From an uncultured Halobacteria archaeon (GTDB lineage: Archaea; Halobacteriota; Syntropharchaeia; Alkanophagales; Methanospirareceae), in the NCBI GenBank assembly GCA_964400255.1, contig CAYNTR010000001.1, forward strand, positions 1 through 61,064: a DNA stretch of 61,064 nucleotides, given 5' to 3'. Positions 701 to 42,200 of this stretch are shown here, piece by piece. A model generated the notes under the pieces. It was not told where the DNA came from, ran no database searches, and saw only the letters and a program-made list of their open reading frames with translations. The position numbers and the translations under genes were made by a program. Position 1 is the stretch's first letter, and each line of letters opens with the position of its first letter.

Positions 701-989
701 TATACGCCATCAACTACAATTGATTTGTTATACGGGGGCATATAAGGGTTTTGAAATAGGCTCTTAGTTAATGATATTATAACGTAAACAATAAAACGCA
801 CAGCCTCTCTTATAGCCGCTTCCTTAAAGCGGCTTTGCACTTATATTCACTTTTGCACTTCTATTCATGATTCTGCACCTTTATTCATCCAAAGTTAGTA
901 TTTTAGGTGCAAAGCCCTCAATAGTAAAACTTTATAGAGCCTAAGATTCGAAAAGGGTAGATGAGTGGAATCGCAATATCCAATATCCT

Positions 990-1772
990 TCATCCACTTC
1001 TCTTTTCAGTTATCTCTTCCTCATACTCAGCGGCTATTTTTTCAGCTATAGCTTCCCCGTAAGATTCAGCCGCTAGTTTCTGACCGTGCTCTTTCCCAAA
1101 TTTCTTAAAGTATATTCTGGCATATTCCTCGTGAATTTTTAAAATTTCTTCTGAAGAAAATCCCTGATTACGATGTATCTGATCCATCATCAGTACTTGT
1201 AATTCTTTGTATTTTTGGTCAAACCATTCATGAGTGGCAACCACACTATTAAATTCATCATCGGTGACATCAAGATCAGAAAATTTCTTTGGATGCATAA
1301 GTCGATTACGTAGCTTTATTGATTGCTTCAAAGAGTTCCACCCCGATTCATGGACCGGAAGTGTATAGGTAAGTCCGACGGATTTGGCATAAATGGAGAA
1401 AGCGAATTTAATATTCTTCTCCAATTTTAGATAGTTCGGCCGGATAATTGGTTCCCCCTTGTCATTTAGATCGTATAACTCCTCAGCTATTAAGGCTAAC
1501 TCAGCCGCCGATAACTTCTCAATACTATTCCGCGCTAACTGCTTCATAACGTAAATTGTACCCTCGATCATCGCAAATACTGCCCGGACGTATTGTCGTA
1601 TCGCGTACTCCTTTACATCAGTCTCAACATGCGAACGACTTATTATTGCATCTATCCCAAGTTCGGCATAGAGTATCATAAGTTTTTTAACTCCCTGCCC
1701 ATCTTCGGAGTTAAACCATTCGTCGAATTCTTCTCGAGGATCCCGATTGCGACGGTGATTTTGTGGTGCCAT
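990..1772 (-). CDS. Hypothetical helical protein with a HEPN-like RNxxxH motif
   Basis: 260-aa ORF with ATG start. IKLRNRLMHPKKF fits the Rx4-6H HEPN signature. It has an acidic C-terminal tail. I recognise no other family. Confidence 0.45.
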   Translation of the reverse strand: MAPQNHRRNRDPREEFDEWFNSEDGQGVKKLMILYAELGIDAIISRSHVETDVKEYAIRQYVRAVFAMIEGTIYVMKQLARNSIEKLSAAELALIAEELYDLNDKGEPIIRPNYLKLEKNIKFAFSIYAKSVGLTYTLPVHESGWNSLKQSIKLRNRLMHPKKFSDLDVTDDEFNSVVATHEWFDQKYKELQVLMMDQIHRNQGFSSEEILKIHEEYARIYFKKFGKEHGQKLAAESYGEAIAEKIAAEYEEEITEKRSG

Positions 1773-2102
1773 ATCATCTAGGTCAGTTTAATTGAACCAT
1801 AAACCACTCACTATTAAAAATTACTGTTCATTATTTTGTTTGATATCTCAGGGTTCGATTACTATATAAAGAAGAAAACTCCTTTTTCACCGCTTTTTTT
1901 CGTAGACCCGTTGGTTATTCGTTTTCGGCACTTTTTGTGGACAAGGTTATGGGTAAAAGTGCGATGAGATAAAAGCGATAACTATTTATGAGGATTTTAA
2001 TTTCCTTCCCTTTTCTGTTCCATCCTCCATATATTTTTTGGTGGTTATTCGACGTTTTTGGCTTTTTCAAAAACCTCTATACTTAACCGTAAAATTTCAC
2101 TT

Positions 2103-3035
2103 TCACTCAATCACCGTCCCCGCCCGCCCCGCAAGCGCCTCAACGACAAATTCGGGCCTACAGACAATTGCTCGATCACCGCCGTTTTCGACGAACTCGA
2201 CCGCCGCTTCTATCTTGGGGCCCATACTCCCGGGCGGAAACTGCCCCTCGCTCAAGTACTGTTGGGCTTCAGCCAGGCTCAGCCGATCCAGGTCGACCTG
2301 CTGCGGCGAATTATAGTTCAGTGCTACCCGCTCCACAGTTGTCAGGAACATGAGCACCTCGGCCTTTATCTCGACCGCCAGCAGGCTGGAAGCTAGGTCT
2401 TTATCGATCACCGCATCCACACCGTTCAGCGCACCACCGTTCTCTTCTGCGACCGGGACGCCGCCGCCGCCACATGCTACCACAATTGACCCAGCCTGTA
2501 CGAGTTCTTTTATGATATCAGTCTCGATGATCCTGATCGGTCGGGGTGAGGGCACCACACGCCGCCAGCCGCGTCCGCTGTCCTCAACTATGGCATGACC
2601 AAGGCGTTCCAGCTCCGCGGCCCGTTCCCTGGTATAAAATGCGCCGACCGGTTTGGTCGGATTCTGCATGGCCGGGTCATCACGATTCACAAGCACCTGC
2701 GTCATCACGGCTGCCACGCAGGTATCAATGCCATGCTCCTTTAACTGGTTTATGAGGCTCTGGGCGATCATGTACCCCATACTGCCCTGTGACTGGGCGA
2801 CATCCACATGTAACGGGGCAGTCGGGACCTTACCCGCGGCTGCTTCTACCTGGATCATGATAAACCCCACCTGGGGGCCGTTCCCGTGGGTCAGCACCAC
2901 CTGGTGCCCTGCTCTGATCAGATGCGCGATATAGCCCATACTCTCATAGGTGTTGCGGAACTGCTGAGCGAAGGTGCCCTGCTCGCCCTTTTTAATTATT
3001 GCATTGCCACCAAGCGCAGCCACTATCAGAGTCAT
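2103..3035 (-). CDS. arcC: Carbamate kinase
   Basis: The N-terminus LIVAALGGNAI...LTHGNGPQVG and the later GGGGVPV and PKIEAA motifs are classic for the carbamate kinase / amino-acid kinase fold. Its ATG directly follows the stop of the upstream gene. Confidence 0.85.
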   Translation of the reverse strand: MTLIVAALGGNAIIKKGEQGTFAQQFRNTYESMGYIAHLIRAGHQVVLTHGNGPQVGFIMIQVEAAAGKVPTAPLHVDVAQSQGSMGYMIAQSLINQLKEHGIDTCVAAVMTQVLVNRDDPAMQNPTKPVGAFYTRERAAELERLGHAIVEDSGRGWRRVVPSPRPIRIIETDIIKELVQAGSIVVACGGGGVPVAEENGGALNGVDAVIDKDLASSLLAVEIKAEVLMFLTTVERVALNYNSPQQVDLDRLSLAEAQQYLSEGQFPPGSMGPKIEAAVEFVENGGDRAIVCRPEFVVEALAGRAGTVIE

Positions 3036-4367
3036 TCATACCTTCACCTGCGCTAAAAACGCATCAACCACCTCTTCCAGAGTTGCATCGCCGATCTCCT
3101 TAATACTGTACCGCACCCGTGTTGCAGGTTTATTGATCGTAATAACACGCGTCAGGTCAATAGGCGTGCCGATAACCACCGCATCGCAATCGGCTGCGTT
3201 GATGGTCTGCTCCAGGTCATGGATCTGCTCCTCGCTGTACCCCATAGCAGGCAGCAGCGGCCCGATATCAGGATACTCGCTGAAGGTTTCCGTGATCGTG
3301 CCGGTGGTAAACGGACGTGGGTCAACGATCTCTTTTGCGCCTGCCTTACGAGCCGCAATGAGTCCTGCACCGTACTTCATGCCGCCGTGTGTCAGTGTGG
3401 GCCCGTCCTCGACCACGAGCACCCGCTTGCCCTTGATAAGCTCAGGGTGCTCGACGGTGATCGGAGATGCCGAATCAATGATCTTTGCATCCGGATTTAC
3501 TTTCATTATATTCCTGCGTACCAGCTCGATCTTTTCCAGTTCCGCGGTATCCTGCTTATTGATCACGACCACATCAGCCATTCGTGCATTGATCTCACCC
3601 GGGTAGTACGTCAATTCATCTCCGGCACGGTGCGGATCTGCAACCACGATGTTCAGATCGGATTTGAAGAAGGAGAAATCGTTATTGCCACCGTCCCAGA
3701 TGATAATATCCGCTTCGGTTTCCGCCTGCCGCAGGATCTTCTCATAGTCCACACCGGCATAGACGGTACAGCCTGCATCGATATGCGTTTCATATTCTTC
3801 CCGCTCCTCTATCGTGCACCCCATACGCTCAATGTCCTCATAAGATGAGAACCGCTGTACCGCTTGCTGGGCAAGGTTGCCGTAGGGCATGGGATGTCGT
3901 ACTACTACCACGGTCTTGTTGCGCTGACGCAGGAGCTGACAGAGCTTTTTACTTACCGAGGTCTTACCACTGCCGGTACGCACCGCACAGACGCTGATCA
4001 CAGGCACGCGGCTTCGCAGCATGGTCGCATGCGGGCCCAGCATGATAAAATCCGCACCCGCGGCATTTACTTCCGCTCCTCTTGTCATAACATATTCATA
4101 AGGCACATCACTGTACGCGAAGACGACACGATCAATCGCATGCTCGTTTATCAGACTGACCAGCTCTTCTTCAGGGAATATGGGTATACCGTCCGGGTAC
4201 AAGCCGCCAGCCAGTTCTGCAGGATACGTTCTGCCTTCTATATCAGGTATCTGGGTCGCGGTGAATGCAACGACACGGTATGCAGGATTATCTCTGAAAT
4301 AAACGTTAAAGTTGTGAAAGTCCCGGCCCGCTGCGCCCATAATGATAACTCTTTTTGGGACGTTCAT
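3036..4367 (-). CDS. COG2403-type P-loop protein (predicted GTPase / cyclic 2,3-diphosphoglycerate synthetase-like)
   Basis: 443 aa. Starts VIIMGAAGRDFHNFN and has a Walker A-like RTGSGKTS. Length and layout fit the COG2403 family. Directly abuts arcC. Confidence 0.55.
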   Translation of the reverse strand: MNVPKRVIIMGAAGRDFHNFNVYFRDNPAYRVVAFTATQIPDIEGRTYPAELAGGLYPDGIPIFPEEELVSLINEHAIDRVVFAYSDVPYEYVMTRGAEVNAAGADFIMLGPHATMLRSRVPVISVCAVRTGSGKTSVSKKLCQLLRQRNKTVVVVRHPMPYGNLAQQAVQRFSSYEDIERMGCTIEEREEYETHIDAGCTVYAGVDYEKILRQAETEADIIIWDGGNNDFSFFKSDLNIVVADPHRAGDELTYYPGEINARMADVVVINKQDTAELEKIELVRRNIMKVNPDAKIIDSASPITVEHPELIKGKRVLVVEDGPTLTHGGMKYGAGLIAARKAGAKEIVDPRPFTTGTITETFSEYPDIGPLLPAMGYSEEQIHDLEQTINAADCDAVVIGTPIDLTRVITINKPATRVRYSIKEIGDATLEEVVDAFLAQVKV

Positions 4368-30408: not shown

Positions 30409-31068
30409 TTATAACAACCCTTTCTCTTTCATGCTCAAATATCCCTTCTTCGAGACAATAAGATGATCCAATACCTTGATACCTAAAACCGATCCTGCCT
30501 CGACGAGTTGTTTTGTCATGAGAATATCTTGCTTGCTCGGTTCCAAAATGCCAGAAGGATGGTTATGCACGAGAATAACAGAAGCCGCTCGATCTGTAAT
30601 AGGATCAGCGAAAACCTCTCGTGGATGAACAAGGTTATGATCAAGTAATCCAACCGTTATTATTCTGTTGCCAACAATCTCGCCCGCTCCGTTTAACGAA
30701 ATACAAACAAAATATTCTTGCTTTTTATCCGCTATATTGGATACAAGCGGTATAACATCTGTCGGCGAAGTGATCTTTACAGCTTCTTTTATGAGATATC
30801 GACGTGCAAGTTCAAAGCTTGCCATTATTTGACACGCTTTTGCCGATCCTACGCCTTCGATTTTCTGGAGATTTTCATAAGTGAGTTGTGCGAGGTCGTT
30901 CTTCAGGGTTTTAGAGATTTCTCTGGCTATTTGAAAAGCATCCATTCCCGGAACTCCCTTTCCGATGATAATTGCGATTAATTCAATGTCGGAAAGCGCT
31001 TCAGGGCCTTTGCTAATGAGTTTTTCCCGTGGGCGGTCAAAATCAGGCAGTTCTTTGATTCGTTTCAT
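30409..31068 (-). CDS. radC: RadC-like JAB/MPN domain protein
   Basis: ELPDFDRPREKL...SDIELIAIIIGKG, an HhH (IEGVGSAKA), and the JAMM motif HNHPSG....PS..D. The ATG at 31068 lies 1 nt after the hsdR stop. Confidence 0.85.
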   Translation of the reverse strand: MKRIKELPDFDRPREKLISKGPEALSDIELIAIIIGKGVPGMDAFQIAREISKTLKNDLAQLTYENLQKIEGVGSAKACQIMASFELARRYLIKEAVKITSPTDVIPLVSNIADKKQEYFVCISLNGAGEIVGNRIITVGLLDHNLVHPREVFADPITDRAASVILVHNHPSGILEPSKQDILMTKQLVEAGSVLGIKVLDHLIVSKKGYLSMKEKGLL

Positions 31069-31069
31069 C

Positions 31070-34000
31070 TTATCCAACTCCAACCGGAAATGAGAGCTCA
31101 GCAGATACAGGAACATAATCCTGATAGAGGTTGATTGCTTGCTCCATTATGGTGCTCACCATTGGGTCGTAGATCTCAGGCGTGAACCCTTCCCGTTTGA
31201 GCAAGCGCTTGACACTCGCGCGTATTTTGCTTTTGACATTCTCATGGTCCGTCCAATCAATGCTCAAGTTGCTTTTGATCGTGACCACTAATTTCTTAGC
31301 TAACTCCAGAAGCTGTTCATCTGATTTGATATGTTCTCTTCCTTGGGCGACGGCATCGTAGAATGCGATTTCTTCATCAGTCAGACCGAGTTGTTCACCA
31401 CGATGTTCCACGGTTCGAAGATCTCGTGCCATGTCAACCAACCGTTCAATCACTTCGGCAGATTCTATTGTGCGGTTCTGATACCTCTTGATCGTATTTT
31501 CCAGCATCTCCTTGAACGAGCGGTAAGTTACGACGTTCTTTTTCATTTTCCCGGTTATCTCATCATTGATTAGTTTCTTAAGCACTTCGACCTGCAAATT
31601 CTTGTGCTCGATCTTCTGGATGTCATTCAGGAACTCGTCACTGAGAATGGAAATTTCTGGGCGGTCCCTTTCTCGGAATCCGAATATATCCACGACTTCA
31701 TCTGAGGAGACGCCTTCGGAGACGAGTTGTTTGATTGCTGTCTCGACATCTTCGGATGCGTCCCTTACAGAAGGTGTGTATTTTCGTATACTTCTGCGGA
31801 CGCTCTGAAAGAAGAGCACATCGTCACGAATATCAGTAGCCTCCTTATGGGGGCTGACCAGCGCAAAAGCCTTTGACAAAGCGGTGCACTGCCTGAGGAA
31901 GCTGTCTTTTGTTTCATCGTCCGTGGTTACCGCATTGTGAGCTCGTTGAATGAGATAGGTTAACTCTACGGGCGCTAACCGCCGCCAGTTTGCATATTCG
32001 ATGCCGTGGAAGAACGAACACACGATATCGTATTTCTCTTGTAAGACGGTAATTGCGTCCTCAATGGCGATCATGGAATCGTGCCGTACTTCATCGCTGT
32101 AGACTCTGAGTGACTTCTTGAGGTCGTCGGCGATACCAATGTAGTCCACGATGAGACCACCTGGTTTATCTTTGAAGACGCGGTTCACTCTCGCAATCGC
32201 TTGCATGAGGTTGTGATCACGCATTGGCTTATCGACATACATGGTGTGAAGGCATGGCGCATCGAAGCCGGTCAGCCACATGTCACGAACAATGACAAAC
32301 TTCAGCGGATCGTTCGGGTCTTTGAACCGTGCTTTGACATCTTCCTGTTCCTGTTTGGTCATCCTCGGCAACCCGAAATCCTCTGGCCGGGTTATGACCA
32401 CAGCAGTCTCGGGCGCCTCGGGGATTTGTCCGAGTAATTCGTACATTTTAACGGCGATGCGTCGACTCATGCAGACGATCATTGCTTTACCTTTGAGTTC
32501 TCGTTGATTGAAGTGCTCAACGATATCCTGAGCAATTTGTTTCACCCGAGTTTCAGTGCCGACGACAGCTTCAAGACGTGCCCATTTGGATTTCAGCTTC
32601 TCTTTGATGATCTCTTCTTCTCGTTCGGTAATCTCCTCGAATTCTTCGTCGATGAATTCATTGGTGAGGCGGACTTTAGCCAGCCGGCCTTCGTAATAGA
32701 TCGGAACCGTGTTTCCGTCTTCCCTTGATTGCCGCATCATATAAACGCTGATATAGTCCCCGAACGTCACCCGCGTTGAACGGTCTTCAAGTTCTATGGG
32801 CGTGCCGGTAAATCCGATGAATGACGCGTTAGGGAGCGCATCCCGAACGTTCCCGGCGAGTAACCGATATTGGGAGCGGTGCGCCTCGTCCGCAATGACG
32901 ATGATGTTCTTTCGCTCAGAGAGCAAGGGATATTTCTCGCCATTCTTGGTCTGGAACTTCTGGATCGTCGTGAAGATGATGCCGCCTGCAGGGATATTGA
33001 GCTTCTGCTTGAGATCCTCGATGTCTTCAGCCTGTTTCGGGTAGGGTATCAAATCCATCGCCTTAGCGAAGTTATCTTTGTATATTTGGTTATCTAAATC
33101 GTTTCGATCGGTCAGAACGAGAATAGTAGGATTCTCAAGCGCGGGGTGTTTAATGATTTTGGCGGTGAAGAAGACCATGGAGAGCGATTTCCCGCTGCCC
33201 TGCGTGTGCCAGATAACCCCGATCTTGCGGTCGCCTTCTTCTGCCGTTGCTCGCAATGTCTCCTGCATCGCACGATTGACGCCGTGATACTGATGGTACA
33301 TGGCCATCTTCTTAACGACGGTGTCGCGATGCGTTTCAAAGAGAATGAAGTTCTGGATGATGTCCAGCAAGCGCGATTTCTCGAAGATGCCTTTGATCAT
33401 GACCTCTAATTCGGGCCTACTGTCGGGCGGTTCCATACCATTCTCAATCACACGCCAGGGGGTGTACCAATCCCAGTCAGCTGTAAGTGTCCCGTGCCGT
33501 GCCTCCTTAACGTCGCTGGCGACGAGAATTTCATTGTAGTGATAGAGCTGCGGGATTTCGCTCTTGTAGACTTTGATGTTCTTGGTAAACGCTTCCTTTG
33601 CCCGCTCATAGCCTACCGGATTCTTCACTTCAATATCCACCAGTGGCAGGCCATTGACAAAAATCAAGACATCAGGCCGGCGATTATGCTCTCCATCAAC
33701 AACGGTGAACTGGTTCACCACGAAGAAATCGTTATTCTCTGGATTCTCGAAGTCAAAGACCCGTGCGAGATCGCCTCTTCGCTCTCCCTCCGGTGTGGTT
33801 ATTTCCACCTTAACGCCGTTGACCGCCATCACATGAAAGCGGTGATTATTGACGTACAGATTCGGCGAATCGAGTGTGAGGAGCTGGTGCATGGCATCCT
33901 CAACGGCATCGTCAGGCAAGTGCGGGTTCAGCCTCTCCAGAGCGGCTCGCAGCCTCCGTTTGAGCACAACGTCACTGTACGAATCCCGTTCCGGGAAGAG

Positions 34001-34111
34001 CCCGCCGGGACTGATGTCCGGTCCGAAGGCTACCTCGTAATCCAGCTCTTGGAACCATGCGAGTGCCGGTTGCTCCGCAAGAACATCCTCAGAAAGCGTT
34101 GCTGAGGTCAT
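31070..34111 (-). CDS. hsdR: Type I restriction enzyme R subunit
   Basis: N-terminal PD-(D/E)xK (PDVLIFVNGLPLVDIEVK), an SF2 helicase (QGSGKS, ADEAHRSQ) and a C-terminal DUF3387-like region. Confidence 0.95.
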   Translation of the reverse strand: MTSATLSEDVLAEQPALAWFQELDYEVAFGPDISPGGLFPERDSYSDVVLKRRLRAALERLNPHLPDDAVEDAMHQLLTLDSPNLYVNNHRFHVMAVNGVKVEITTPEGERRGDLARVFDFENPENNDFFVVNQFTVVDGEHNRRPDVLIFVNGLPLVDIEVKNPVGYERAKEAFTKNIKVYKSEIPQLYHYNEILVASDVKEARHGTLTADWDWYTPWRVIENGMEPPDSRPELEVMIKGIFEKSRLLDIIQNFILFETHRDTVVKKMAMYHQYHGVNRAMQETLRATAEEGDRKIGVIWHTQGSGKSLSMVFFTAKIIKHPALENPTILVLTDRNDLDNQIYKDNFAKAMDLIPYPKQAEDIEDLKQKLNIPAGGIIFTTIQKFQTKNGEKYPLLSERKNIIVIADEAHRSQYRLLAGNVRDALPNASFIGFTGTPIELEDRSTRVTFGDYISVYMMRQSREDGNTVPIYYEGRLAKVRLTNEFIDEEFEEITEREEEIIKEKLKSKWARLEAVVGTETRVKQIAQDIVEHFNQRELKGKAMIVCMSRRIAVKMYELLGQIPEAPETAVVITRPEDFGLPRMTKQEQEDVKARFKDPNDPLKFVIVRDMWLTGFDAPCLHTMYVDKPMRDHNLMQAIARVNRVFKDKPGGLIVDYIGIADDLKKSLRVYSDEVRHDSMIAIEDAITVLQEKYDIVCSFFHGIEYANWRRLAPVELTYLIQRAHNAVTTDDETKDSFLRQCTALSKAFALVSPHKEATDIRDDVLFFQSVRRSIRKYTPSVRDASEDVETAIKQLVSEGVSSDEVVDIFGFRERDRPEISILSDEFLNDIQKIEHKNLQVEVLKKLINDEITGKMKKNVVTYRSFKEMLENTIKRYQNRTIESAEVIERLVDMARDLRTVEHRGEQLGLTDEEIAFYDAVAQGREHIKSDEQLLELAKKLVVTIKSNLSIDWTDHENVKSKIRASVKRLLKREGFTPEIYDPMVSTIMEQAINLYQDYVPVSAELSFPVGVG

Positions 34112-35175
34112 GTTTTATTCTTTTCTCGATATAGCTTCCAGATTTCATCCAAGGACTTTTCTTTAAGGGTGTCTTTAATCGCTCTTATTGCTTCTCGTGA
34201 ATATTTGTAGTATTTGGATTTACCAATGGGAATCGCCTTGCAATAAGTTTCATTATCTTTCAGCTTCAAGTACCAAATTAAAGCATCTGTCTTTCTCTTT
34301 GACAATCCTACCGCTTCTGCCAGTTGATCTCTTCCCATCGTATAGTAACTCAGCTCTTTTACCTTTCTTATTCCCACGACCATCGCTCCTGGCGTTCCCT
34401 CAGGAACCACCTGTATTGGAATTCCGTCCTTCTTGGTAAAACGAAGATTGAGCGATAGCCCTGAGCCTTCAGTGGTCATGTTTAGAGAGGCAACCCCCGG
34501 GAAGATCGTTTGCCAATCGATTCCGCCCGCTATCTTCGTCAATTTTTTCCGCAGTTTTGCATCAGTTACCGGAACATGCTCCCCACTGATAGCGCTTTCC
34601 ATTATATCTAACGCTCGTAATCTAGCTAAGGCTAATGACTTTTTCCGGCTACCCGGCATGAGCATTGCCTTGATGTGCTCTATTTCATTCTCGAACAAAA
34701 CATCAATATCCTTGGGCGGAACGGTAGAAATGGGAAGAACTCGTTGTGGCATAAATTCTGAGAGATCTTTACCAAAAACGGTTTTTAAAATGTCTTTAAA
34801 GAGTGTCACGCCCCCTTGCATAAGCAGATAATGCTGATCCTCAGGGATATCAATGAAATAATGCTGTTCAGCATCTCTCATGCTGTTGATCATCTGAAGC
34901 GTCAACGCTTGCTCATCGGTTAAAAATCTCACGTTACCCGCACCAATAGCCAGTCGTACACATTTATCAAATCCAACCGTCTGTTTAGACTCTTTATCGT
35001 AAATTTTTGCCCTTCTCTGTAAAAGAGTGGCCTTGAGGAGCATCTCAAACGCATGGTCAAGTAATATCAAAGAAGCATGGATTCTCCCTCTATCAAAGGG
35101 TCGGTTAAAAAATTCAATGCTGAGCAGCAAAGAATCGGTGGCTTTGCTCAGCAGGATCTTAACTATTCTCTTCAT
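34108..35175 (-). CDS. DUF3644-like protein embedded between hsdS and hsdR
   Basis: SLLLSIEFFNRPFDRGRIHASLILLDHAFEMLLKA resembles the DUF3644 N-terminal signature, with a C-terminal HTH-like region. The ATG at 35175 gives the shortest overlap with hsdS; ATGs at 35199 and 35244 are also possible. Confidence 0.45.
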   Translation of the reverse strand: MKRIVKILLSKATDSLLLSIEFFNRPFDRGRIHASLILLDHAFEMLLKATLLQRRAKIYDKESKQTVGFDKCVRLAIGAGNVRFLTDEQALTLQMINSMRDAEQHYFIDIPEDQHYLLMQGGVTLFKDILKTVFGKDLSEFMPQRVLPISTVPPKDIDVLFENEIEHIKAMLMPGSRKKSLALARLRALDIMESAISGEHVPVTDAKLRKKLTKIAGGIDWQTIFPGVASLNMTTEGSGLSLNLRFTKKDGIPIQVVPEGTPGAMVVGIRKVKELSYYTMGRDQLAEAVGLSKRKTDALIWYLKLKDNETYCKAIPIGKSKYYKYSREAIRAIKDTLKEKSLDEIWKLYREKNKT

Positions 35176-36424
35176 TCTTTGCTCCCGTTTTATCACCATT
35201 ATTCCCTCGTATTTGACCCGAAAGAAGTTTCGGGAGGAGTGCATCTCTGAGATTCACTAATTGACGAGATTCTATATTGTTATTTATGAAAGTCTCTATC
35301 AAGGGATTCATTAGTTCATTCATTTTTTCAATGATTTCTTTTGGGGGTATTAATACATAGGTCTCAGATAAATGATGACGTTGAATATGACCCATTGTTG
35401 TAGCCTTTCCTTTGGCAATATGCCGAAATATAGGCAAATAAAATTTAATCCATTGATAATAGAACCATTTAGGGTAAGTTTGAGATGTAACTTTAAATAG
35501 ATGTTGATTTAGCGCACCTTTACCACCGCACCAGATACAAACTTCAAGGCTACCTGACCATGAAAAAAGAATATCGCCATCATCAACAATATATCGTTTA
35601 TCAATGTCTGGACTCGCTTTATCACTCGATTCTGTTATACCTTGCCGAAGTTCCCTTATCTTGATCCCAGGCAAATAGTTTTCATCTTTTGGTGGGTATT
35701 TCTGTAGGGCTAAACCGTTTAAGAAATTTGCTATCTCATCAATTGGTTTCGCCACCCACCCCTTCGGAATCTTCTTTCCCAGCTCCTCAGAATAGACCAT
35801 CTCGCCGCCGCTTGACTTATACGGCTGCCCCTGCCCGTTCGGGAACTCGAAGTCCACGAACCAGTGTTTGAAGATCGCCTGCGCCATCGCCTCCAGCGTT
35901 CTGTTCATCGCATGGTTGAGCTCGATCTTGTCGTCTAAGGCAGATAAAATAGAGGCGATCTTTTGCTGCTCGGGGAGGGGTGGAAGAACAATCTTTAAAT
36001 CGTCAAACGTCTTTTTTGTAATCGTATCAAATACCGTCCCATAAGAGAGGGAGTTTATCTTTTCCATCAGAGTTTTAAGTTTATAGAACAGGAACAGGGG
36101 ATATACACCTTCTTTTGCTATTAGACCATAACACGTTTGATTAAATGCCATTGAATAGGGTAATAGACAAGTCTTTCCAACGGTCCCTCGAGATGTAATT
36201 ACAATTGTATTTCGTGGCAATAATTTTGTGGCACTGTTTTCCAACCCTTCTTGAGTTATTGTTTTTTCAGTTTCATAAATGTATCTGCCATTACAATTTG
36301 CTATGTCCTTAGCACTAGCCCACTTTATATTTCCACCCCAATATTCTGGTTTATTTGTTTTTGGCGTTCCGCCTATCACAATATCAGCAATCTCAGAAAT
36401 AGCGAGCTCTTGTTCAGAACCCAT
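35159..36424 (-). CDS. hsdS: Type I R-M specificity subunit
   Basis: Two target-recognition domains, each beginning GGTPKT-like or ending FP.., separated by conserved coiled regions (LPPLPEQQKIASILSALDDKIELN). Confidence 0.9.
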   Translation of the reverse strand: MGSEQELAISEIADIVIGGTPKTNKPEYWGGNIKWASAKDIANCNGRYIYETEKTITQEGLENSATKLLPRNTIVITSRGTVGKTCLLPYSMAFNQTCYGLIAKEGVYPLFLFYKLKTLMEKINSLSYGTVFDTITKKTFDDLKIVLPPLPEQQKIASILSALDDKIELNHAMNRTLEAMAQAIFKHWFVDFEFPNGQGQPYKSSGGEMVYSEELGKKIPKGWVAKPIDEIANFLNGLALQKYPPKDENYLPGIKIRELRQGITESSDKASPDIDKRYIVDDGDILFSWSGSLEVCIWCGGKGALNQHLFKVTSQTYPKWFYYQWIKFYLPIFRHIAKGKATTMGHIQRHHLSETYVLIPPKEIIEKMNELMNPLIETFINNNIESRQLVNLRDALLPKLLSGQIRGNNGDKTGAKNEENS

Positions 36425-36440
36425 ACTCCAGCTCCTCCAT
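36415..36440. repeat. Junction repeat D (remnant ..MEELEYGF* fused to the hsdS start MGSE)
   Basis: CAGAACCCATACTCCAGCTCCTCCAT matches the hsdM/AlbA_2 junction at 22 of 23 nt. Confidence 0.85.
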
Positions 36441-36498
36441 TACTATCATCTCAACTAAAACCATCTTTAAGCCTTTTATGCCTTCAAAGAGAGAGTTC

Positions 36499-36912
36499 CT
36501 AATCAAACTGCACACCTCCTTTCATAATCATAGAATCATCAACATAACGGAAAGATTGCGGCGGCACGAAATCTGGTTTTAATTCTTCAGGATCAACAAA
36601 ATGCTTAAAAATATGAAGAGATTGAATTTCAATTGCAAAACCTTCCTTATATCCGTTAAAATAGCTAAAGAAATCATCCTCGTTAATCCCTGACACATCT
36701 TTATATTTCTTCCACAGTACTTCAGGGGCTTCTTTTACGACTTCACCAATTTTAAAATAGCCGACAACCTTTTTTTGAGGAGAAGCGGAATAGATAAATA
36801 CTTTAGCTATGTCCCGGTGCTTCTTAAATATAGTCTTCCTGAACTCATATCTCTTATTGCCATTCATTATCTCTTTTACGTAGATTGGCTTAATCGAAAG
36901 TAAAATGTCCAT
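36499..36912 (-). CDS. ASCH (PUA-like) domain protein
   Basis: ILLSIKPIYVKEIMNGNKRYEFRK......VFIYSASPQKKVVGYFKIGEV..APEVLW is the canonical ASCH pattern. Its start overlaps the upstream ORF by 23 nt. Confidence 0.75.
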   Translation of the reverse strand: MDILLSIKPIYVKEIMNGNKRYEFRKTIFKKHRDIAKVFIYSASPQKKVVGYFKIGEVVKEAPEVLWKKYKDVSGINEDDFFSYFNGYKEGFAIEIQSLHIFKHFVDPEELKPDFVPPQSFRYVDDSMIMKGGVQFD

Positions 36913-38371
36913 CTATACCACCTCTTTCTTTTATTTTCAAATATTTATCATGGTCTATTTCAGTGATGGACTGGGGAGCGCCTCTTAATATATCGTTTTC
37001 TATCAAATCATTTAGTATCAATGGGTTTTCTATATAGAAATGCCAACTGAAAAATATTAGTAACGTGGGCTTTTTTGCCATTTCTTTAATTTCTTCATAA
37101 GTATACACGCTTCTTTTTCCCACATATCGCATTATTTCGTTTTTTGTTAAATTACCTCTGTAAACCCTTTCAACAACTCCCAGAGCAGTTATACTGCTCA
37201 TATCACCGGAGCGATAAAACAAAACAACATCTCCACTATTGATTTTTATGCTTCTTGAATGAGAAAGATATGCTTTTTTTATCGTGTTTCCTTCAACAAT
37301 GAATTGCCCGAGATATTCAGGTAAGGTTGATTGCCTTTTATAATCCGTGAATAATCTATCATGGTATTCTGGACGAATCGGAATTACGAATTTATTTACC
37401 TTTCTTCCATCATATAACGACGGGTAGTATTTCTTGCAGATTTCTTGGTATGCTATCTCGGTTCCTTCATCCGGTTTTAATTTCTTTAGATAGACTTCTT
37501 CTCCTCTTTCATTCACAGCTGCTCGGTAGAACCCGAATTCAGTTATCAATTCGATCAAGAGGTCATTTTCTTTTGTGAAGTGTGTTAGATACATTTCGTC
37601 GATATTGTTTCGTACACATAGATTTACAGTCAGTTTGATAAAAAGCTCGCCAATTTTATAACCTGTATGAGAAACTTTCATGGTGGATATCTTTAATCTT
37701 CTTTTTTTAGGTAACGGTGGAATGGAATCAATAGCTTCCTCTTCAATCTTATAGATAAGTAAAGCACCGATCTTGTGATTGCCGTAGTATACCCAGCATT
37801 TTCTCCCTTCCCTGGAAATTTTATTAAACCATTGTTCAAATTCACCATACTCCTTTTTCAATGAGTCGAAAAATGGATCTTTGATATCCAAGTTATGCAC
37901 TGGAACTTTCTGGATTGCCGGAGGTGGTGTCACATCGGTATTCAAATATCTCTTTAAAAAAACTAAGCCATCCTCGATGTTAAACACGCGATCATCGACT
38001 CCAATTTTCTTAGATTTCGTGTATATGCCCCTATCTTCTGTTACTAGAAAATCGATTGCGTTTTTATAAAGGCTAAAAAGCAATGCATTATCCACACGTT
38101 CATTATGGCTCTGTGGCACCCCAACTATTGACACAAAATCAGGGTCAGGGTCTATTGGGGACTCCAAATATCTATAGGTTTTTATTTTAGAGAGAATAAC
38201 TCCTTTTCTCTTTTCATCTTTATCTCGATAAATCTCGCTAACAGAAAGAGGGTGGATCAAAATCTCCGCTTTCAGCTCACTTAAAAGTCTCAATAGTTCC
38301 TGCAAATTGTCAGGGAGAACATTGTTATCCTCTCTGTATATGAAAATATTTGTATCTATCAAGACTCTCAT
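36890..38371 (-). CDS. PIN / GNAT-like / PUA-like three-module fusion protein
   Basis: The PIN module has MRVLIDTNIFIY and LVTEDRG. The central region has a GNAT-like loop (MKVSHTGYKIGELFIKL, EFGFY). The C-terminal beta-rich module has KFVIPIRPEYHDRLF and SGDVVLFYRSGDMSSITALGVVERVY. The PIN call is solid. The other two are inferences from motif shape. Confidence 0.55.
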   Translation of the reverse strand: MRVLIDTNIFIYREDNNVLPDNLQELLRLLSELKAEILIHPLSVSEIYRDKDEKRKGVILSKIKTYRYLESPIDPDPDFVSIVGVPQSHNERVDNALLFSLYKNAIDFLVTEDRGIYTKSKKIGVDDRVFNIEDGLVFLKRYLNTDVTPPPAIQKVPVHNLDIKDPFFDSLKKEYGEFEQWFNKISREGRKCWVYYGNHKIGALLIYKIEEEAIDSIPPLPKKRRLKISTMKVSHTGYKIGELFIKLTVNLCVRNNIDEMYLTHFTKENDLLIELITEFGFYRAAVNERGEEVYLKKLKPDEGTEIAYQEICKKYYPSLYDGRKVNKFVIPIRPEYHDRLFTDYKRQSTLPEYLGQFIVEGNTIKKAYLSHSRSIKINSGDVVLFYRSGDMSSITALGVVERVYRGNLTKNEIMRYVGKRSVYTYEEIKEMAKKPTLLIFFSWHFYIENPLILNDLIENDILRGAPQSITEIDHDKYLKIKERGGIDGHFTFD

Positions 38372-39486
38372 GATACTCCCTCCATCATCTTCTTTCCCTT
38401 CTCCTTTTCCAAATCGCCTTCCACCTCTTCTAAGAGCCCTGCCAATTGCCGTGGGTCCGGCAGTTGACCGCTGAGTTCTTTCGGCAGTTTAAGCGTGAGC
38501 TTGTATTCGGATACTCCAATGGGTTTGCTCATATCCCTGAGTGAGTATTCTGCGATAAGCCCCTTTTTTGTCTTGCATAATATGATCCCGACAGAAGGCT
38601 GGTCATCTGGGTGCCGCACCATGTCGTCCAGTGCCGAGAGGTAGAAGTTCATCTTCCCGGCGTATTCCGGCATGAACTCGCTCATCTTCAGGTCGACGGC
38701 CACCAGACACCGCAACCGATGGTGGTAGAAAAGCAGATCAATATAAAAATCGCGCTCTGCCACTTCCAGGTGGTACTGGTTGCCCATGAAGGCGAATCCC
38801 ACGCCCAGCTCGAGCAGGAACTCTGTGAGCTTTTCCCGCAACGCCTTCTCGAGATCGCGCTCCTTTGCATCCCTCGCAATGGTGATGAAATCGAAGATGT
38901 ACGGGTCTTTAATCGCCTGTTCCACCAGTTCAGATTGTGGCGATGGGAGCGTCTGTGGGAAATTGGTAGTTTTGGCGGCAACAGCCTGCCTTCCATAAAG
39001 GTCGCTCTCTATCTGGTGAACCAGGACATTGCGGCTCCAGCCGTTCATCTTGGTCTGCTCTGCATACCATAAACGCTCCTTAGAATTTTTAACTTTCTCC
39101 AGCAAAACCACATTATGCCCCCATGGAATTTCTGCGACAGCTTGTGGCAGATTTACAACGTCAATATCTCGCACAAGTTGTGCGAGTTTCTCAACATCTT
39201 CAGAATATGCCAAATAAAACGCGCGCATCCGCCAGATATTGCTTGGAGAGAACCCCTTCACATCTGGAAACTCCCGCCGTAGATCCCGAGCCAACTGCTC
39301 CACAACACCTTTACCCCAGCTCGTTTCCTCCTGTTTCTCAACTATACTTTTACCAATATCCCAGTAAAGAGCAATTAACTCCCTGTTAACAGACAAAACC
39401 GCTTTGGTCTGGGCAATTCTAATACGCTCTTTCAGTTCGTCGAGGAATTCTGGATACCCGGATCGTTCTATCAGCTCAGAATCCAT
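38368..39486 (-). CDS. DUF1016 / YhcG-family PD-(D/E)xK nuclease
   Basis: The family signature is AQTKAVLSVNRELIALYWDIGKSI...WGKGVVEQLARDLRREFPDVKGFSPSNIWRMRAFYLAY. The nuclease core is DLLFYHHRLRCLVAVDLK. Confidence 0.85.
   Translation of the reverse strand: MDSELIERSGYPEFLDELKERIRIAQTKAVLSVNRELIALYWDIGKSIVEKQEETSWGKGVVEQLARDLRREFPDVKGFSPSNIWRMRAFYLAYSEDVEKLAQLVRDIDVVNLPQAVAEIPWGHNVVLLEKVKNSKERLWYAEQTKMNGWSRNVLVHQIESDLYGRQAVAAKTTNFPQTLPSPQSELVEQAIKDPYIFDFITIARDAKERDLEKALREKLTEFLLELGVGFAFMGNQYHLEVAERDFYIDLLFYHHRLRCLVAVDLKMSEFMPEYAGKMNFYLSALDDMVRHPDDQPSVGIILCKTKKGLIAEYSLRDMSKPIGVSEYKLTLKLPKELSGQLPDPRQLAGLLEEVEGDLEKEKGKKMMEGVS
38379..38403. repeat. Junction repeat C (..EKGKKMMEG at the DUF1016 3' end)
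   Basis: The 25-mer CCTCCATCATCTTCTTTCCCTTCTC is identical to 39496-39520. Confidence 0.9.
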
Positions 39487-40630
39487 ACCCCAGCTCCTCC
39501 ATCATCTTCTTTCCCTTCTCAGTAATTACATATCTCTGCTTGCTGCTTCGGGGCTTATCCGGGATGGTCATGGCCAACCATCCGGCCTCCAGAGCAGGCA
39601 GGATATATGCTTTCCGAAGATGCCATCGATCCACAAGCGCCAGTATCTTCTGAATCTCCTCCCGGGATTTCGGCTCTGCACAGGCAGCCAGCATCGTTCT
39701 AACTTGTGGGGTAACTTGTGGGGTAACTTGTGGCCTTCTATCGAATATAACGGTGAAGAACGAGGTGAACTCATACCGGGGCTCGGGTAGGCCGCTGGAG
39801 ACCATCATCTCTTTCATCCGGGTTATGCCCGACCCTATCTTTTCCACCGCTCCGATCCGGTGGAAGAAATCGGCGATCATCGCGTTCCTGCGCACGCTCT
39901 TCTTACCGAGGTCTTCCGGTTTCATTCCCGGTGGTAACCCGCCGGGATCGGCTATCTCCACCCGGTCCCGGTACACCTCTACAGAAATGTTCGCGGACTC
40001 GAAATGGTAGTCACGATGCATGACGGAATTGAGCACCGCCTCACGGAGGACCTCTTCCGGAATCTCCAGAATCTCCTTCCTTTTCAAGCCGGTAATCTCA
40101 TATTTCAATGGCAGATGCATCTTCAGGAAGAGCATTGCCTGCTTCACATTTTCCATGAGATTGCCTTTCAGCTCTTTTCTATCCAGAATATCAACCTTGT
40201 CCGTACCCGCGAGTAACACACAATCGACGGTAGCATGCCTCAGAAATCGTATCGGCTCCCGGGCAAAGAAGAGAACGCCAGTATTCGTGAATAGCAACCT
40301 TTCGTCGTGCTGTTTTGCAACACCGAGATTTACGAGAACATCCTCGGTACTCATGCCGGTGGATGATACCCCTGCACTATCCAAAATCTTCAAAGGTACC
40401 GGAGGATCACAGCCCCGAGCAATACTTTCCAGCTTTGAAATCTGGCTATTAATGTTTGAAACGCCCACAACCTTCCTATCATTATCCATCCCCACGAGGA
40501 TATGACCTCCCCCGGAATTGGCGAATGCCACCATCTCACGATTGATCGAACTGGAAACTGATCGTTTATACTCTATAAACTGACCCTCCGGCTGAGAGAG
40601 CATCATGTCCAAGCTCTTCTCAGAACCCAT
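39476..40630 (-). CDS. AlbA_2 (Schlafen-like) plus HATPase_c_4 plus wHTH protein
   Basis: The AlbA_2 domain is shown by [10 protein letters not shown]....[29 protein letters not shown]. The HATPase_c_4 domain is shown by [41 protein letters not shown]. The C-terminus looks like a wHTH. Confidence 0.75.
39477..39520. repeat. Junction repeat B (..[13 protein letters not shown] fused to MDSE)
   Basis: The first 23 nt match junction A at 22 of 23. The last 25 nt are identical to junction C. Confidence 0.9.
39699..39734. repeat. In-frame 12-bp x 3 tandem repeat
   Basis: (G/C)TAACTTGTGGG repeated three times on the plus strand encodes [11 protein letters not shown] in the AlbA_2 protein linker. 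Confidence 0.9.
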
Positions 40631-42200
40631 ACCCCAGCTCCTCTAAATTCGCTTTTATCTCGTCCCTGAGACCCTCTGCTCGCTCAAACTGCGCGGCAAG
40701 TTCTGCAACAAGTCGTTGCATTTTCTCCTCAAACGGCTCATCGTCGTCCTCGACCTCTTCCGTGCCAACGTACCGACCCGGGGTGAGCACGTACCCGTTT
40801 TTTCTTATCTCATCGAGAGTAGCGACCTTACAGAAACCCGGAGCGTTTTCGTACTCCCGCATTCCTGCTTCACCGCGATGCGCGTGGTAGGTATCCGCAA
40901 TTTGCTTGATCTGCTCATCTGTCAACTCGTTGTGCGTCCGGTCCACTTTCCGGAAGAGCTTGCGTGCATCGATGAATAACGTTTCACCTCTACGGTTGCG
41001 CTGCTCATTTTGCGCTTTGTTCTTGGTGACGAACCATAAACAGGCCGGAATGCCCGTGGTATAAAACAACTGCATGGGCAATGCGATCACGCAATCCACG
41101 AGATCCTCCTCAATGATCTTCTTCCGAATCTCGCCTTCGATACCGCCCACGGACATCGAGCCGTTCGCCATCACAAATCCAGCAATCCCGTTGGGCGCTA
41201 AATGATAGATGAAATGCTGGATCCACAGGTAATTAGCGCTTGAATTTGGTGGCGTGCCGTATTTGAGCCGGACGTCACCCTGCACCCGGTCAACGCCCCA
41301 CTCGCTCACGTTGAACGGCGGATTCGCGAGAATACAGTCGGCACGCAAATCCTTGAATTTGTCGTCCCAGTAGCTGTTCCCGAGCTGGATGTTGCCCTCA
41401 ATACTCCGAATGGCGAGGTTCATCTTACAGATCCGCCAGGTCGTATCGATACTTTCCTGCCCGAAGATCGAGATATCGGCCCGCTTGCCGCCGTGTGCTT
41501 GGATGAACTTGATGCTCTGGACGAACATGCCGCCGGAGCCACACGCAGGGTCGAATATGCGGCCGCGATAGGGCTCCATCATTTCAACCAGGAGTTTGAC
41601 GATGCAGCGCGGCGTGTAAAACTCGCCACCTCCTTTGCCTTCCTGTTGCGCAAACCGCCCGATGAAATATTCGTAGACACGGCCGAGGATGTCTTTCGCG
41701 ATCGCATCGACGGTTCCAAACCCGATCGTGCTGAAGAGGTTGATGATCTCACCTAACGTAAGATAATCGATATTCGACCGTGCATAGATCTTTGGGAGGA
41801 CACCGCGGAACTGCTTCGGGTTCTCCTTTTCGATCGCTACCATAGCGTTGTCCACCAGCTTGCCAAGATTTAGATTCGTCGCATTCGCCATTAAAGACGA
41901 CCACCGGGCCTCTGGCGGCACCCAGAAGATGTTCTCGCTGAGATATTCGTCTTTCTCTTCAAGTGCATCGGAGATGCCGTAGTATTCGAGGTTTCCGGGA
42001 TCTTTCACCGCTCGGTTCAGATACTGCTGCCGCTCGACAAAGGCATCGGAGATGTATTTCAAGAAAATAAGACCCAGTACGATGTGTTTATATTCGGCGG
42101 ACTCGACGCTCCCGCGCAGTTTGTCCGCAGCCTTCCAGAGCGATTCGGCGAAATTGAGGTCGCCATTCTCGTTCGATTGTTGCGGTTTTTTGTTGGGCAT
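40620..42200 (-). CDS. hsdM: Type I R-M N6-adenine DNA methyltransferase subunit
   Basis: HsdM_N region, AdoMet motif ([10 protein letters not shown]) and catalytic NPPF. Confidence 0.95.
40621..40643. repeat. Junction repeat A (hsdM ..EELGYGF* fused to MGSE of the next gene)
   Basis: CAGAACCCATACCCCAGCTCCTC is the reference copy of the junction motif. Confidence 0.9.

Follow-up and report, generated by a model that had tools for sequence, protein, structure and literature searches.

The stretch of DNA analysed here, referred to as the window, comprises the 61,064 nucleotides (nt) of contig CAYNTR010000001.1 (assembly GCA_964400255.1), and carries on its minus strand, between 30.4 and 42.2 kb, an operon in which the 3' end of the methylase gene hsdM recurs at the boundaries of genes lying downstream of it. 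The locus is a chromosomal type I restriction-modification (R-M) operon (hsdM ... hsdS ... hsdR-radC) with candidate defence genes nested in two slots, from an archaeon with a probable relationship to Methanophagales. Indeed, all type I subunits were recognized in the sequence: HsdM with methyltransferase and N-terminal domains, HsdS with two target-recognition domains (TRDs), and HsdR with nuclease, superfamily 2 translocase, and C-terminal domains. The TRDs of hsdS are variable, and its conserved central region is 81-89% identical to that of its alleles. The genes of the minus strand follow one another in the order hsdM, AlbA_2, DUF1016, a gene of 493 amino acids (aa), a gene of 137 aa, hsdS, DUF3644, hsdR, and radC, all co-oriented:

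40620..42200, minus strand: hsdM, type I methylase subunit (Pfam N6_Mtase PF02384, 9e-112; HsdM_N PF12161, 2e-24)
39476..40630, minus strand: passenger 1, AlbA_2/HATPase_c_4/Fic-like_C, 384 aa (Pfam, homologues, alignment)
38368..39486, minus strand: passenger 2, DUF1016/YhcG PD-(D/E)XK nuclease, PDC-S02 (YhcG_C 1.6e-64; DUF1016_N 4e-46; PADLOC 4.5e-148)
36890..38371, minus strand: passenger 3a, 493 aa, no Pfam match, PDC-M11A (PADLOC 5.4e-161; GC content about 0.35)
36499..36912, minus strand: passenger 3b, 137 aa, ASCH-like, PDC-M11B (PADLOC 1e-48; weak Pfam ASCH match)
35159..36424, minus strand: hsdS, specificity subunit with two TRDs (Pfam Methylase_S PF01420, 2.4e-42, two stretches)
34108..35175, minus strand: DUF3644/EC042_2821-like gene in the hsdS-hsdR slot, PDC-S19 (Pfam; PADLOC 6e-137 from residue 24)
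31070..34111, minus strand: hsdR, restriction/translocase subunit (Pfam HSDR_N PF04313, SWI2_SNF2 PF18766/PF04851, T1RH-like_C PF22679, PF11867)
30409..31116, minus strand: RadC-like JAB gene (Pfam; neighbourhood in alleles)

Genes embedded in type I R-M operons are known from PrrC in EcoprrI, the rlo genes of Campylobacter hsd loci, and TgvAB in V. cholerae VPI-2 (Payne et al., 2024; PMC11411939). The locus described here resembles the "guilt-by-embedding" candidates of Payne et al. (2024): its passengers match PADLOC models (PDC-S02, PDC-M11A/B, PDC-S19), lie co-oriented between hsdM and hsdR, and are regarded as candidate anti-phage defence genes. In the pertinent parts of the source paper, PDC-S02, PDC-M11, and PDC-S19 are likewise candidates without an activity test (Payne et al., 2024, bioRxiv 10.1101/2024.01.29.577857). 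Embedding in R-M, BREX, and similar operons now serves the discovery of immune systems, while its origin and the maintained expression of the embedded genes have been left unexplained.

The hsdM tail junction and its copies

Two short sequence families were found to rank top in a repeat search of the window. The first, the 23-mer CAGAACCCATACCCCAGCTCCTC, occurs exactly at 40621-40643 and with one mismatch each at 39477-39499 and 36415-36437, these being the only three matches at up to 3 mismatches; the second, the 25-mer CCTCCATCATCTTCTTTCCCTTCTC, occurs exactly at both 39496-39520 and 38379-38403. When both were searched across the window and in 100 shuffles of it, the expected number was 0 in either case, so that the repeats noticed in a first-pass annotation made from the sequence alone were confirmed in number and position. 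They form the following features:

40620..40646, minus strand: junction copy 1 (J1), the hsdM tail core, with GAGGAG at 40638-40643, the next ATG at 40628-40630, and the hsdM TGA at 40620-40622
39476..39520, minus strand: junction copy 2 (J2), an AlbA_2 tail (39496-39520) plus an hsdM-type core (39476-39502), overlapping the DUF1016 ATG at 39484-39486 (MDSE)
38379..38403, minus strand: displaced remnant of the AlbA_2 tail, identical at 25/25 positions and fused to the 3' end of DUF1016
36414..36464, minus strand: junction copy 3 (J4, at hsdS), within an orphan 16-codon mini open reading frame (mini-ORF), MVLVEMIVMEELEYGF followed by a stop, whose last 8 codons are an hsdM 3' remnant (36414-36440)

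On the coding strand, the 23-mer reads GAGGAGCTGGGGTATGGGTTCTG followed by A, and corresponds to the last hsdM codons, E-E-L-G-Y-G-F-stop. At J1, the hsdM end (NLEELGYGF-stop) and the start of the AlbA_2 gene (MGSE) have 11 nt in common, the hsdM stop lying 5 nt past the AlbA_2 ATG. At J4, the orphan mini-ORF ends in MEELEYGF-stop and its TGA overlaps the hsdS ATG (36422-36424; MGSE). The junction had first been described as reiterated at four gene boundaries; this holds for three of them, whereas the fourth, between DUF1016 and the 493-aa gene, has the AlbA_2-type 25-mer alone. Nor do the passengers begin with an hsdS-like start, as had been proposed: since the next ATG overlaps the hsdM GYGF-stop codons, these dictate the MGSE and MDSE N-termini, and the 493-aa gene has a start of another type.

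The motif NLxELGYG is the conserved C-terminus of this HsdM clade (120 homologues). Codon usage was compared in a set of 79 non-redundant type I loci (L001-L099 plus the window) gathered from relatives and a metagenome scan, 63 of which have the tail tyrosine whose codon holds the embedded start (TAT-G). This codon is TAT in 62 of the 63 loci, whereas TAT makes up 42.5% of the other tyrosine codons in these genes (618 TAT:836 TAC), and the bias extends to GC-rich hsdM genes with 0/15-16 TAT elsewhere. On this codon evidence, the ATG embedded in the hsdM tail is under selection, and the end of hsdM constitutes a translational-coupling junction with dual coding. The embedded start is used whichever gene comes after hsdM, be it AlbA_2, DUF1016, or hsdS, and the bias provides a clean case, across phyla, of an upstream protein whose C-terminal sequence and codon choice are limited by a downstream start codon. 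The same hsdM-tail overlap is also present in the complete Deinococcus aquaticus plasmid pDATS03. A tblastn search of plasmids with a 46-aa HsdM C-terminal peptide gave no match; thus, no complete replicon can be named as an example of a remnant, and pDATS03 exemplifies the overlap itself only. By analogy, the arrangement is consistent with the translational coupling of hsdM and hsdS established for EcoKI, where the hsdS start also overlaps the hsdM end and expression of S is coupled to that of M (Roberts et al., 2012, PMC3510504). However, the EcoKI overlap is 1 nt, whereas here it spans 8-14 nt, the ATG lies inside conserved Gly-Tyr-Gly codons, passengers use it too, and the segment is duplicated.

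The second family has a different origin. Alignment of AlbA_2 homologues found them ending in Y-V-L-T-E-K-G-K-K-M-V/M-E-E-L in many contexts, which identifies EKGKKMME as a native AlbA_2-family C-terminus and not an hsdM sequence. The DUF1016 tail is therefore a displaced AlbA_2 3' fragment. The passenger ends are as first described, hsdM-like or AlbA_2-like, but the attribution of the 25-mer is corrected accordingly. The remnant places GGAGG 8 nt 5' of the ATG of the 493-aa gene, and DUF1016 and this gene overlap by ATGA at 38368-38371; a diverged copy of the AlbA_2-tail fragment lies directly upstream of the M11A orthologues in L013 and L016. The AlbA_2 tail repeats the principle seen with hsdM, in that the part of an upstream gene in which the next ribosome site lies has been duplicated, both neighbours being left intact.

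The AlbA_2 gene of the window has itself an in-frame internal deletion of about 80 aa at about 40385 (tblastn alignment split at q82; homologues have 482-493 aa), which takes out the end of the AlbA_2 domain. From this, the gene may be inactive. The AlbA_2 gene of L020 is more reduced still, with 51 N-terminal residues joined to a C-terminal winged helix-turn-helix.

Selection at the protein level could be invoked instead of duplication, an HsdM-like tail (EELGYGF) acting as a functional peptide tag that docks passengers onto the HsdS/methylase complex. AlbA_2 proteins of this lineage do end in EELGYGF or EELGYEF, the DUF1016 protein of L064 ends in NLEELGYGG, and a fusion of the EcoKI M C-terminus to the S N-terminus stays active (PMC3510504). 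Nevertheless, copies are found outside any sizeable protein (the mini-ORF of the window; L005, L029, L084, and L092), more distant AlbA_2 homologues have no GYGF end, the DUF1016 protein of the window has lost it, and an identity of 22-23/23 nt is more than peptide selection needs, which makes such a tag rather improbable.

Alleles of the locus

Ten alleles of the locus, the window included, were found to carry differing passenger sets. The hsdM products of the others are close relatives of that of the window (80-91% aa identity), and the chromosomal position is the same where the flank suffices to tell (L009/L010, L015), with a radical-SAM HMPTM gene upstream and RadC, HhH-GPD, and ABCE1 downstream:

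L009-12: hsdM-DUF1016-hsdS-hsdR
L005-7: hsdM-DUF1016-(hsdM remnant)-hsdS-KwaA-KwaB-hsdR
L013/14: hsdM-AlbA_2-M11A-M11B-(hsdM remnant)-hsdS-GmrSD-hsdR
L015: hsdM-AlbA_2-(partial second AlbA_2)-224 aa-hsdS-MNT-HEPN-hsdR
L016-19: hsdM-AlbA_2-DUF1016 fragment-M11A-M11B-hsdS
L020: hsdM-(heavily deleted AlbA_2)-hsdS-hsdR
L022: hsdM-DUF1016-M11B-hsdS
L003: hsdM-DUF1016 (5' part)-AlbA_2 fragment
L001: hsdM-DUF1016-hsdS

Thus, when related loci are aligned, as the first-pass annotation had suggested, alleles of one chromosomal locus do differ in their passengers between recurring junction copies. In L001, from a Methanophagales metagenome-assembled genome (MAG), hsdS is followed (812-4218) by a convergent OLD-type ATPase/TOPRIM gene and a UvrD helicase gene, a Gabija-like pair, in the expected place of hsdR.

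The breakpoints between alleles fall on the junctions. In comparisons of the window with L003, L005, L009, L001, and L022, the sequences are homologous across hsdM as far as the J1 end, and again from the start of the J2 core onward; the presence or absence of AlbA_2 therefore breaks exactly at the J1 and J2 cores, with a start-to-start spacing of 1144 nt. J2 is chimeric, as its upstream part is an AlbA_2 tail and its downstream part (TATGGATTCTGAGCTGATAGAACG...) equals the hsdM|DUF1016 junction of L003. The hsdM remnant on the hsdS start comprises 8 codons in the window, about 21 in L013 (ending in KELKEEIRGNLEELGYEF and a stop), and about 19 in L005, the window remnant differing from that of L013 by a 42-nt internal deletion. 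A shared ATG-GAG-GAG was considered as a derived trait linking J2 and J4 and was dropped, the ATG of the window having arisen by this 42-nt deletion in a longer remnant. Three loci show footprints of tandem duplication: L013 has a junction and a remnant of the AlbA_2 start behind its AlbA_2 gene, L015 contains a partial second AlbA_2 copy, and in the unrelated L084 the start of the passenger (MNT) appears again after a junction.

The same comparisons bear on whether the repeats are genuine. A metagenome assembler might have joined strains via the shared short junction, and the window is a metagenome-type contig from a locus with high strain-level allelic diversity. Such an artefact is, however, extremely unlikely, and the repeats can be taken as real: a second assembler gave an identical hsdM-J1-AlbA_2-J2-DUF1016 arrangement, L100 (an independent Logan assembly of run SRR8652712) being an exact substring of window 39416-41271 that covers the first two junctions; the same gene order was recovered in at least four independent assemblies of a diverged lineage (L016-19); and the repeats (23-45 nt) are below usual final k-mer lengths.

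A recent entry of the array is contradicted by its age. From AlbA_2 through DUF1016 (a fragment in L016-19), M11A, and M11B to hsdS, the window and L016-19 show a uniform nucleotide identity of about 71-73% across segments, so that the array predates their split. In addition, the M11A/B block (window 36499-38371; L013 2381-4313; L016 3770-5684) has a GC content of 0.35-0.37 in every allele, against 0.44-0.53 in hsdM, so that the GC step in the window is no sign of recent arrival. Identity between the window and L013 is mosaic (hsdM 86%, AlbA_2 core 92%, M11AB 69%, 3' part of hsdS 89%, hsdR 83%), the divergent block beginning at the AlbA_2-tail remnant and reaching as far as the J4 start. This pattern fits cassette exchange between repeats, without amounting to proof of it.

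The hsdS-hsdR slot is a second variable site, occupied by PDC-S19 in the window (34108-35175), KwaA-KwaB (Kiwa) in L005 (9725-11151), GmrSD in L013 (5615-7456), and MNT-HEPN in L015 (8915-9611), and empty in L009. Known systems (Kiwa, GmrSD, MNT-HEPN) are embedded in the same slots of the alleles. Passengers in this slot abut hsdR by ATGA, or by an overlapping TAATGA in L013, and on the side of hsdS they either overlap that gene or begin a few nt past its end. In the window, the likely start of the PDC-S19 gene is the ATG at 35173-35175, within the hsdS 3' end, and the gene is joined to hsdR by an ATGA overlap. Remnants of the hsdS tail were looked for upstream of hsdR and none was found. The RadC-like JAB gene overlaps or abuts the 3' side of hsdR in every close allele with sequence past hsdR, and may belong to the operon.

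Remnants in other type I loci

A scan of a genome collection for the degenerate EELGYGF-stop/ATG junction returned 2 stretches only (a Methanophagales MAG; Oscillospiraceae, probably chance). The exact peptide-level junction is thus rare, and the general pattern can be seen only with the tail of each locus itself. The survey therefore covered 75 non-redundant type I loci with sufficient downstream sequence (hsdM 56-100% identical, GC 0.35-0.69), using as query the last 9 residues of each locus's own HsdM plus stop (12 residues in an earlier version) on the same strand downstream. The controls were 995 kb of upstream and antisense sequence, where the best score was 20, and the threshold for remnants was a score of at least 29.

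Matches to the own tail at this threshold were found in 8 of the 32 loci with an estimated hsdM-hsdS gap (the window, L005, L013, L029, L031, L064, L080, and L092), in 3-4 of the 12 in which hsdS was not reached (L036/L039, L084, and L091), and, with the exception of L077, in none of the 30 in which hsdS directly follows hsdM. The remnants are short, from 9 to about 55 codons, lie downstream of passengers (DUF1016, MNT-HEPN, and others), and terminate in a stop codon overlapping the start of the gene that follows. What is repeated in distant loci is the hsdM tail of the locus concerned. By this survey, the reiterated junction is a scar that recurs with embedding and is not peculiar to this contig. 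L077 (4770-11268) contains a complete tandem hsdM-hsdS duplication before one hsdR, either real or an assembly repeat.

The first-pass annotation had reasoned that the same motif at loci free of insertions would mean a conserved functional motif rather than a duplication. The motif does occur at such loci, and a conserved functional motif explains the first copy, but not the extra ones. The same distinction bears on independent convergence, whereby every boundary would have evolved the same ribosome site, start, and stop without duplication. Conservation and function of the hsdM-end motif in many insertion-free loci lend this idea some ground, yet identities of 22-23/23 and 25/25 cover positions without obvious constraint, orphan copies encode hsdM-like peptides of up to 19-55 codons in other alleles and loci, and extra copies occur only where passengers are present, so that convergence has very little probability, only slightly more than an assembly artefact.

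It is improbable, though less so than any of the other alternatives weighed so far, that the remnants are what is left of additional hsdM genes, formerly full-length and derived from tandem or merged type I modules. In favour of such decay, L077 contains a complete tandem hsdM-hsdS duplication, and the 48-55-codon remnants of L031 and L036/L039 exceed what a ribosome site needs. Against this, no remnant intermediate between about 55 codons and full length was found among the 75 loci, the remnants end precisely on the downstream start and those of the window have only 8 codons, and the AlbA_2-tail duplication shows the same pattern without hsdM. For annotation, an isolated hsdM-tail peptide whose end coincides with a start codon serves as a marker of both an insertion boundary and the true hsdS start.

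Proposed recombination at the coupling junction, and known systems

The repeats are probably best explained by recombination at, and duplication of, the coupling junction without a dedicated recombinase. In this HsdM clade, the initiation region of the next gene sits within the last ~8 hsdM codons, with GAGGAG (Glu-Glu) taken as a Shine-Dalgarno (SD)-like site and the ATG supplied by Gly-Tyr-Gly (TAT-G). At least 24 nt therefore belong to both hsdM and the gene behind it, and for a full-length hsdM and expression of that gene to survive an insertion between them, the shared segment has to be present twice afterwards. Likewise, the AlbA_2 3' end holds the ribosome site of the following gene, and was duplicated when DUF1016 came between them. 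Copies could arise by recombination in which the hsdM tail provides a short stretch of homology. The DNA might come from another type I locus, through Campbell-type integration or homology-facilitated illegitimate recombination; alternatively, alleles might undergo unequal crossing-over. The direct repeats (24-45 nt) would then allow the cassettes between them to be deleted, tandemly duplicated, or exchanged, and selection for translational coupling of hsdS, which the remnants presumably still drive, would keep them intact. The allelic series thus offers a sequence-level answer for one slot: surviving insertions duplicate the coupling junction, and the duplicates permit loss, tandem duplication, and exchange.

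Entry of the passengers by recombination at, or duplication of, the junction, as first proposed, agrees with the breakpoints at the cores, the remnants on the hsdS start, and the recurrence of the scar with passengers, whereas the mechanism is only inferred. Several points weigh against this explanation. No recombination event was directly observed, and more than one order of insertion fits, such as tandem AlbA_2 duplication followed by replacement, or direct insertion of DUF1016. The array is ancient, so near-identity of the copies within the window demands constraint or gene conversion. About three quarters of the surveyed passenger-bearing loci have no detectable remnant, implying that duplication is not obligatory or that it decays, and the hsdS-hsdR slot is equally variable, yet free of repeat scars. 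Finally, taking GAGGAG as an SD-like site in this organism is an assumption, there being no 16S rRNA gene within the window.

Homology-facilitated illegitimate recombination and Campbell-type single-crossover integration are known in naturally transformable bacteria, and both predict foreign DNA flanked by a duplicated anchor, with a retained recipient copy of variable length. The 8-55-codon remnants found here match both, a likeness of anatomy only. On a broader and doubtful reading, which we put forward tentatively, the hsdM 3' tail would be a recombinase-independent docking site common to a large type I R-M clade of bacteria and archaea: cassettes would carry a copy of the tail, integrate by short homology into any operon with a similar tail, and gain a ribosome site and a start codon at once. 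If this were true, the tail would be a general-recombination analogue of the integron, accounting for the origin of embedding and for its near-constant co-orientation.

The likeness to integrons (attI/attC, IntI) lies in ordered, co-oriented, promoterless cassettes, a short recurring boundary element, and a content variable between strains. A dedicated site-specific cassette system, integron- or shufflon-like, with the junction as recombinase attachment site, would account for cassettes bounded by a recurring short sequence and varying among alleles. However, no integrase, invertase, or transposase was found in the operon, in the flanks of about 20 kb within the window, or in the allelic loci. 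The repeats are direct, without inverted-repeat arms, and RNA folding of the four junctions gave no significant structure (z -0.83 to +0.70), upon which the idea of a structured RNA or attC element was dropped; Rfam and tRNA scans of the window gave no matches. Moreover, distant loci repeat their own hsdM tail and have no common site. The lack of a recombinase, the direct repeats without a fold, and the locus-specific tail together make a dedicated site-specific system very unlikely, only marginally less so than convergence. In contrast to integrons, no integrase and no attC-like hairpin were found here, the boundary is host-gene coding sequence that differs per locus, and recombination presumably proceeds by general or short-homology pathways. 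A 17-nt stretch in hsdR (33878-33894) is 88% complementary to the junction core, probably by chance.

In hsdS shufflons and epigenetic invertons (PMC7672463), too, short-repeat recombination diversifies type I loci. There, inverted repeats within hsdS and an invertase change specificity, whereas in the locus studied here it is the accessory content that changes, through direct repeats located at gene boundaries, and the window has a single hsdS, direct repeats, and no invertase.

Embedding in type I operons is known, but the junction scar appears to be new. In their parts concerned with embedding, earlier studies combine a catalogue of contents with function tests, and describe neither the reiterated hsdM-tail/start junction nor its association with passengers. 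The significance of embedding "remains to be explored" according to Payne et al. (2024, bioRxiv 10.1101/2024.01.29.577857), and no route of gene embedding is described in the discussion of that paper or in the passages of PMC11411939 on embedding. Duplication of the hsdM 3' end, its association with passengers, and codon evidence for the embedded start were not found in the literature searched, an absence that is no proof of novelty.

The window also lacks the marks of a transposon or insertion sequence, with no transposase in the operon or flanks, and with duplications that range from 24 to about 165 nt and are of variable, not fixed, length. An ISL3 transposase gene was seen in L101 (Deinococcus sp. 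D7000 plasmid CP058535.1, 7044-8931), where it lies directly after DUF1016, at the expected hsdS start, and only an hsdS-like 5' stub is left.

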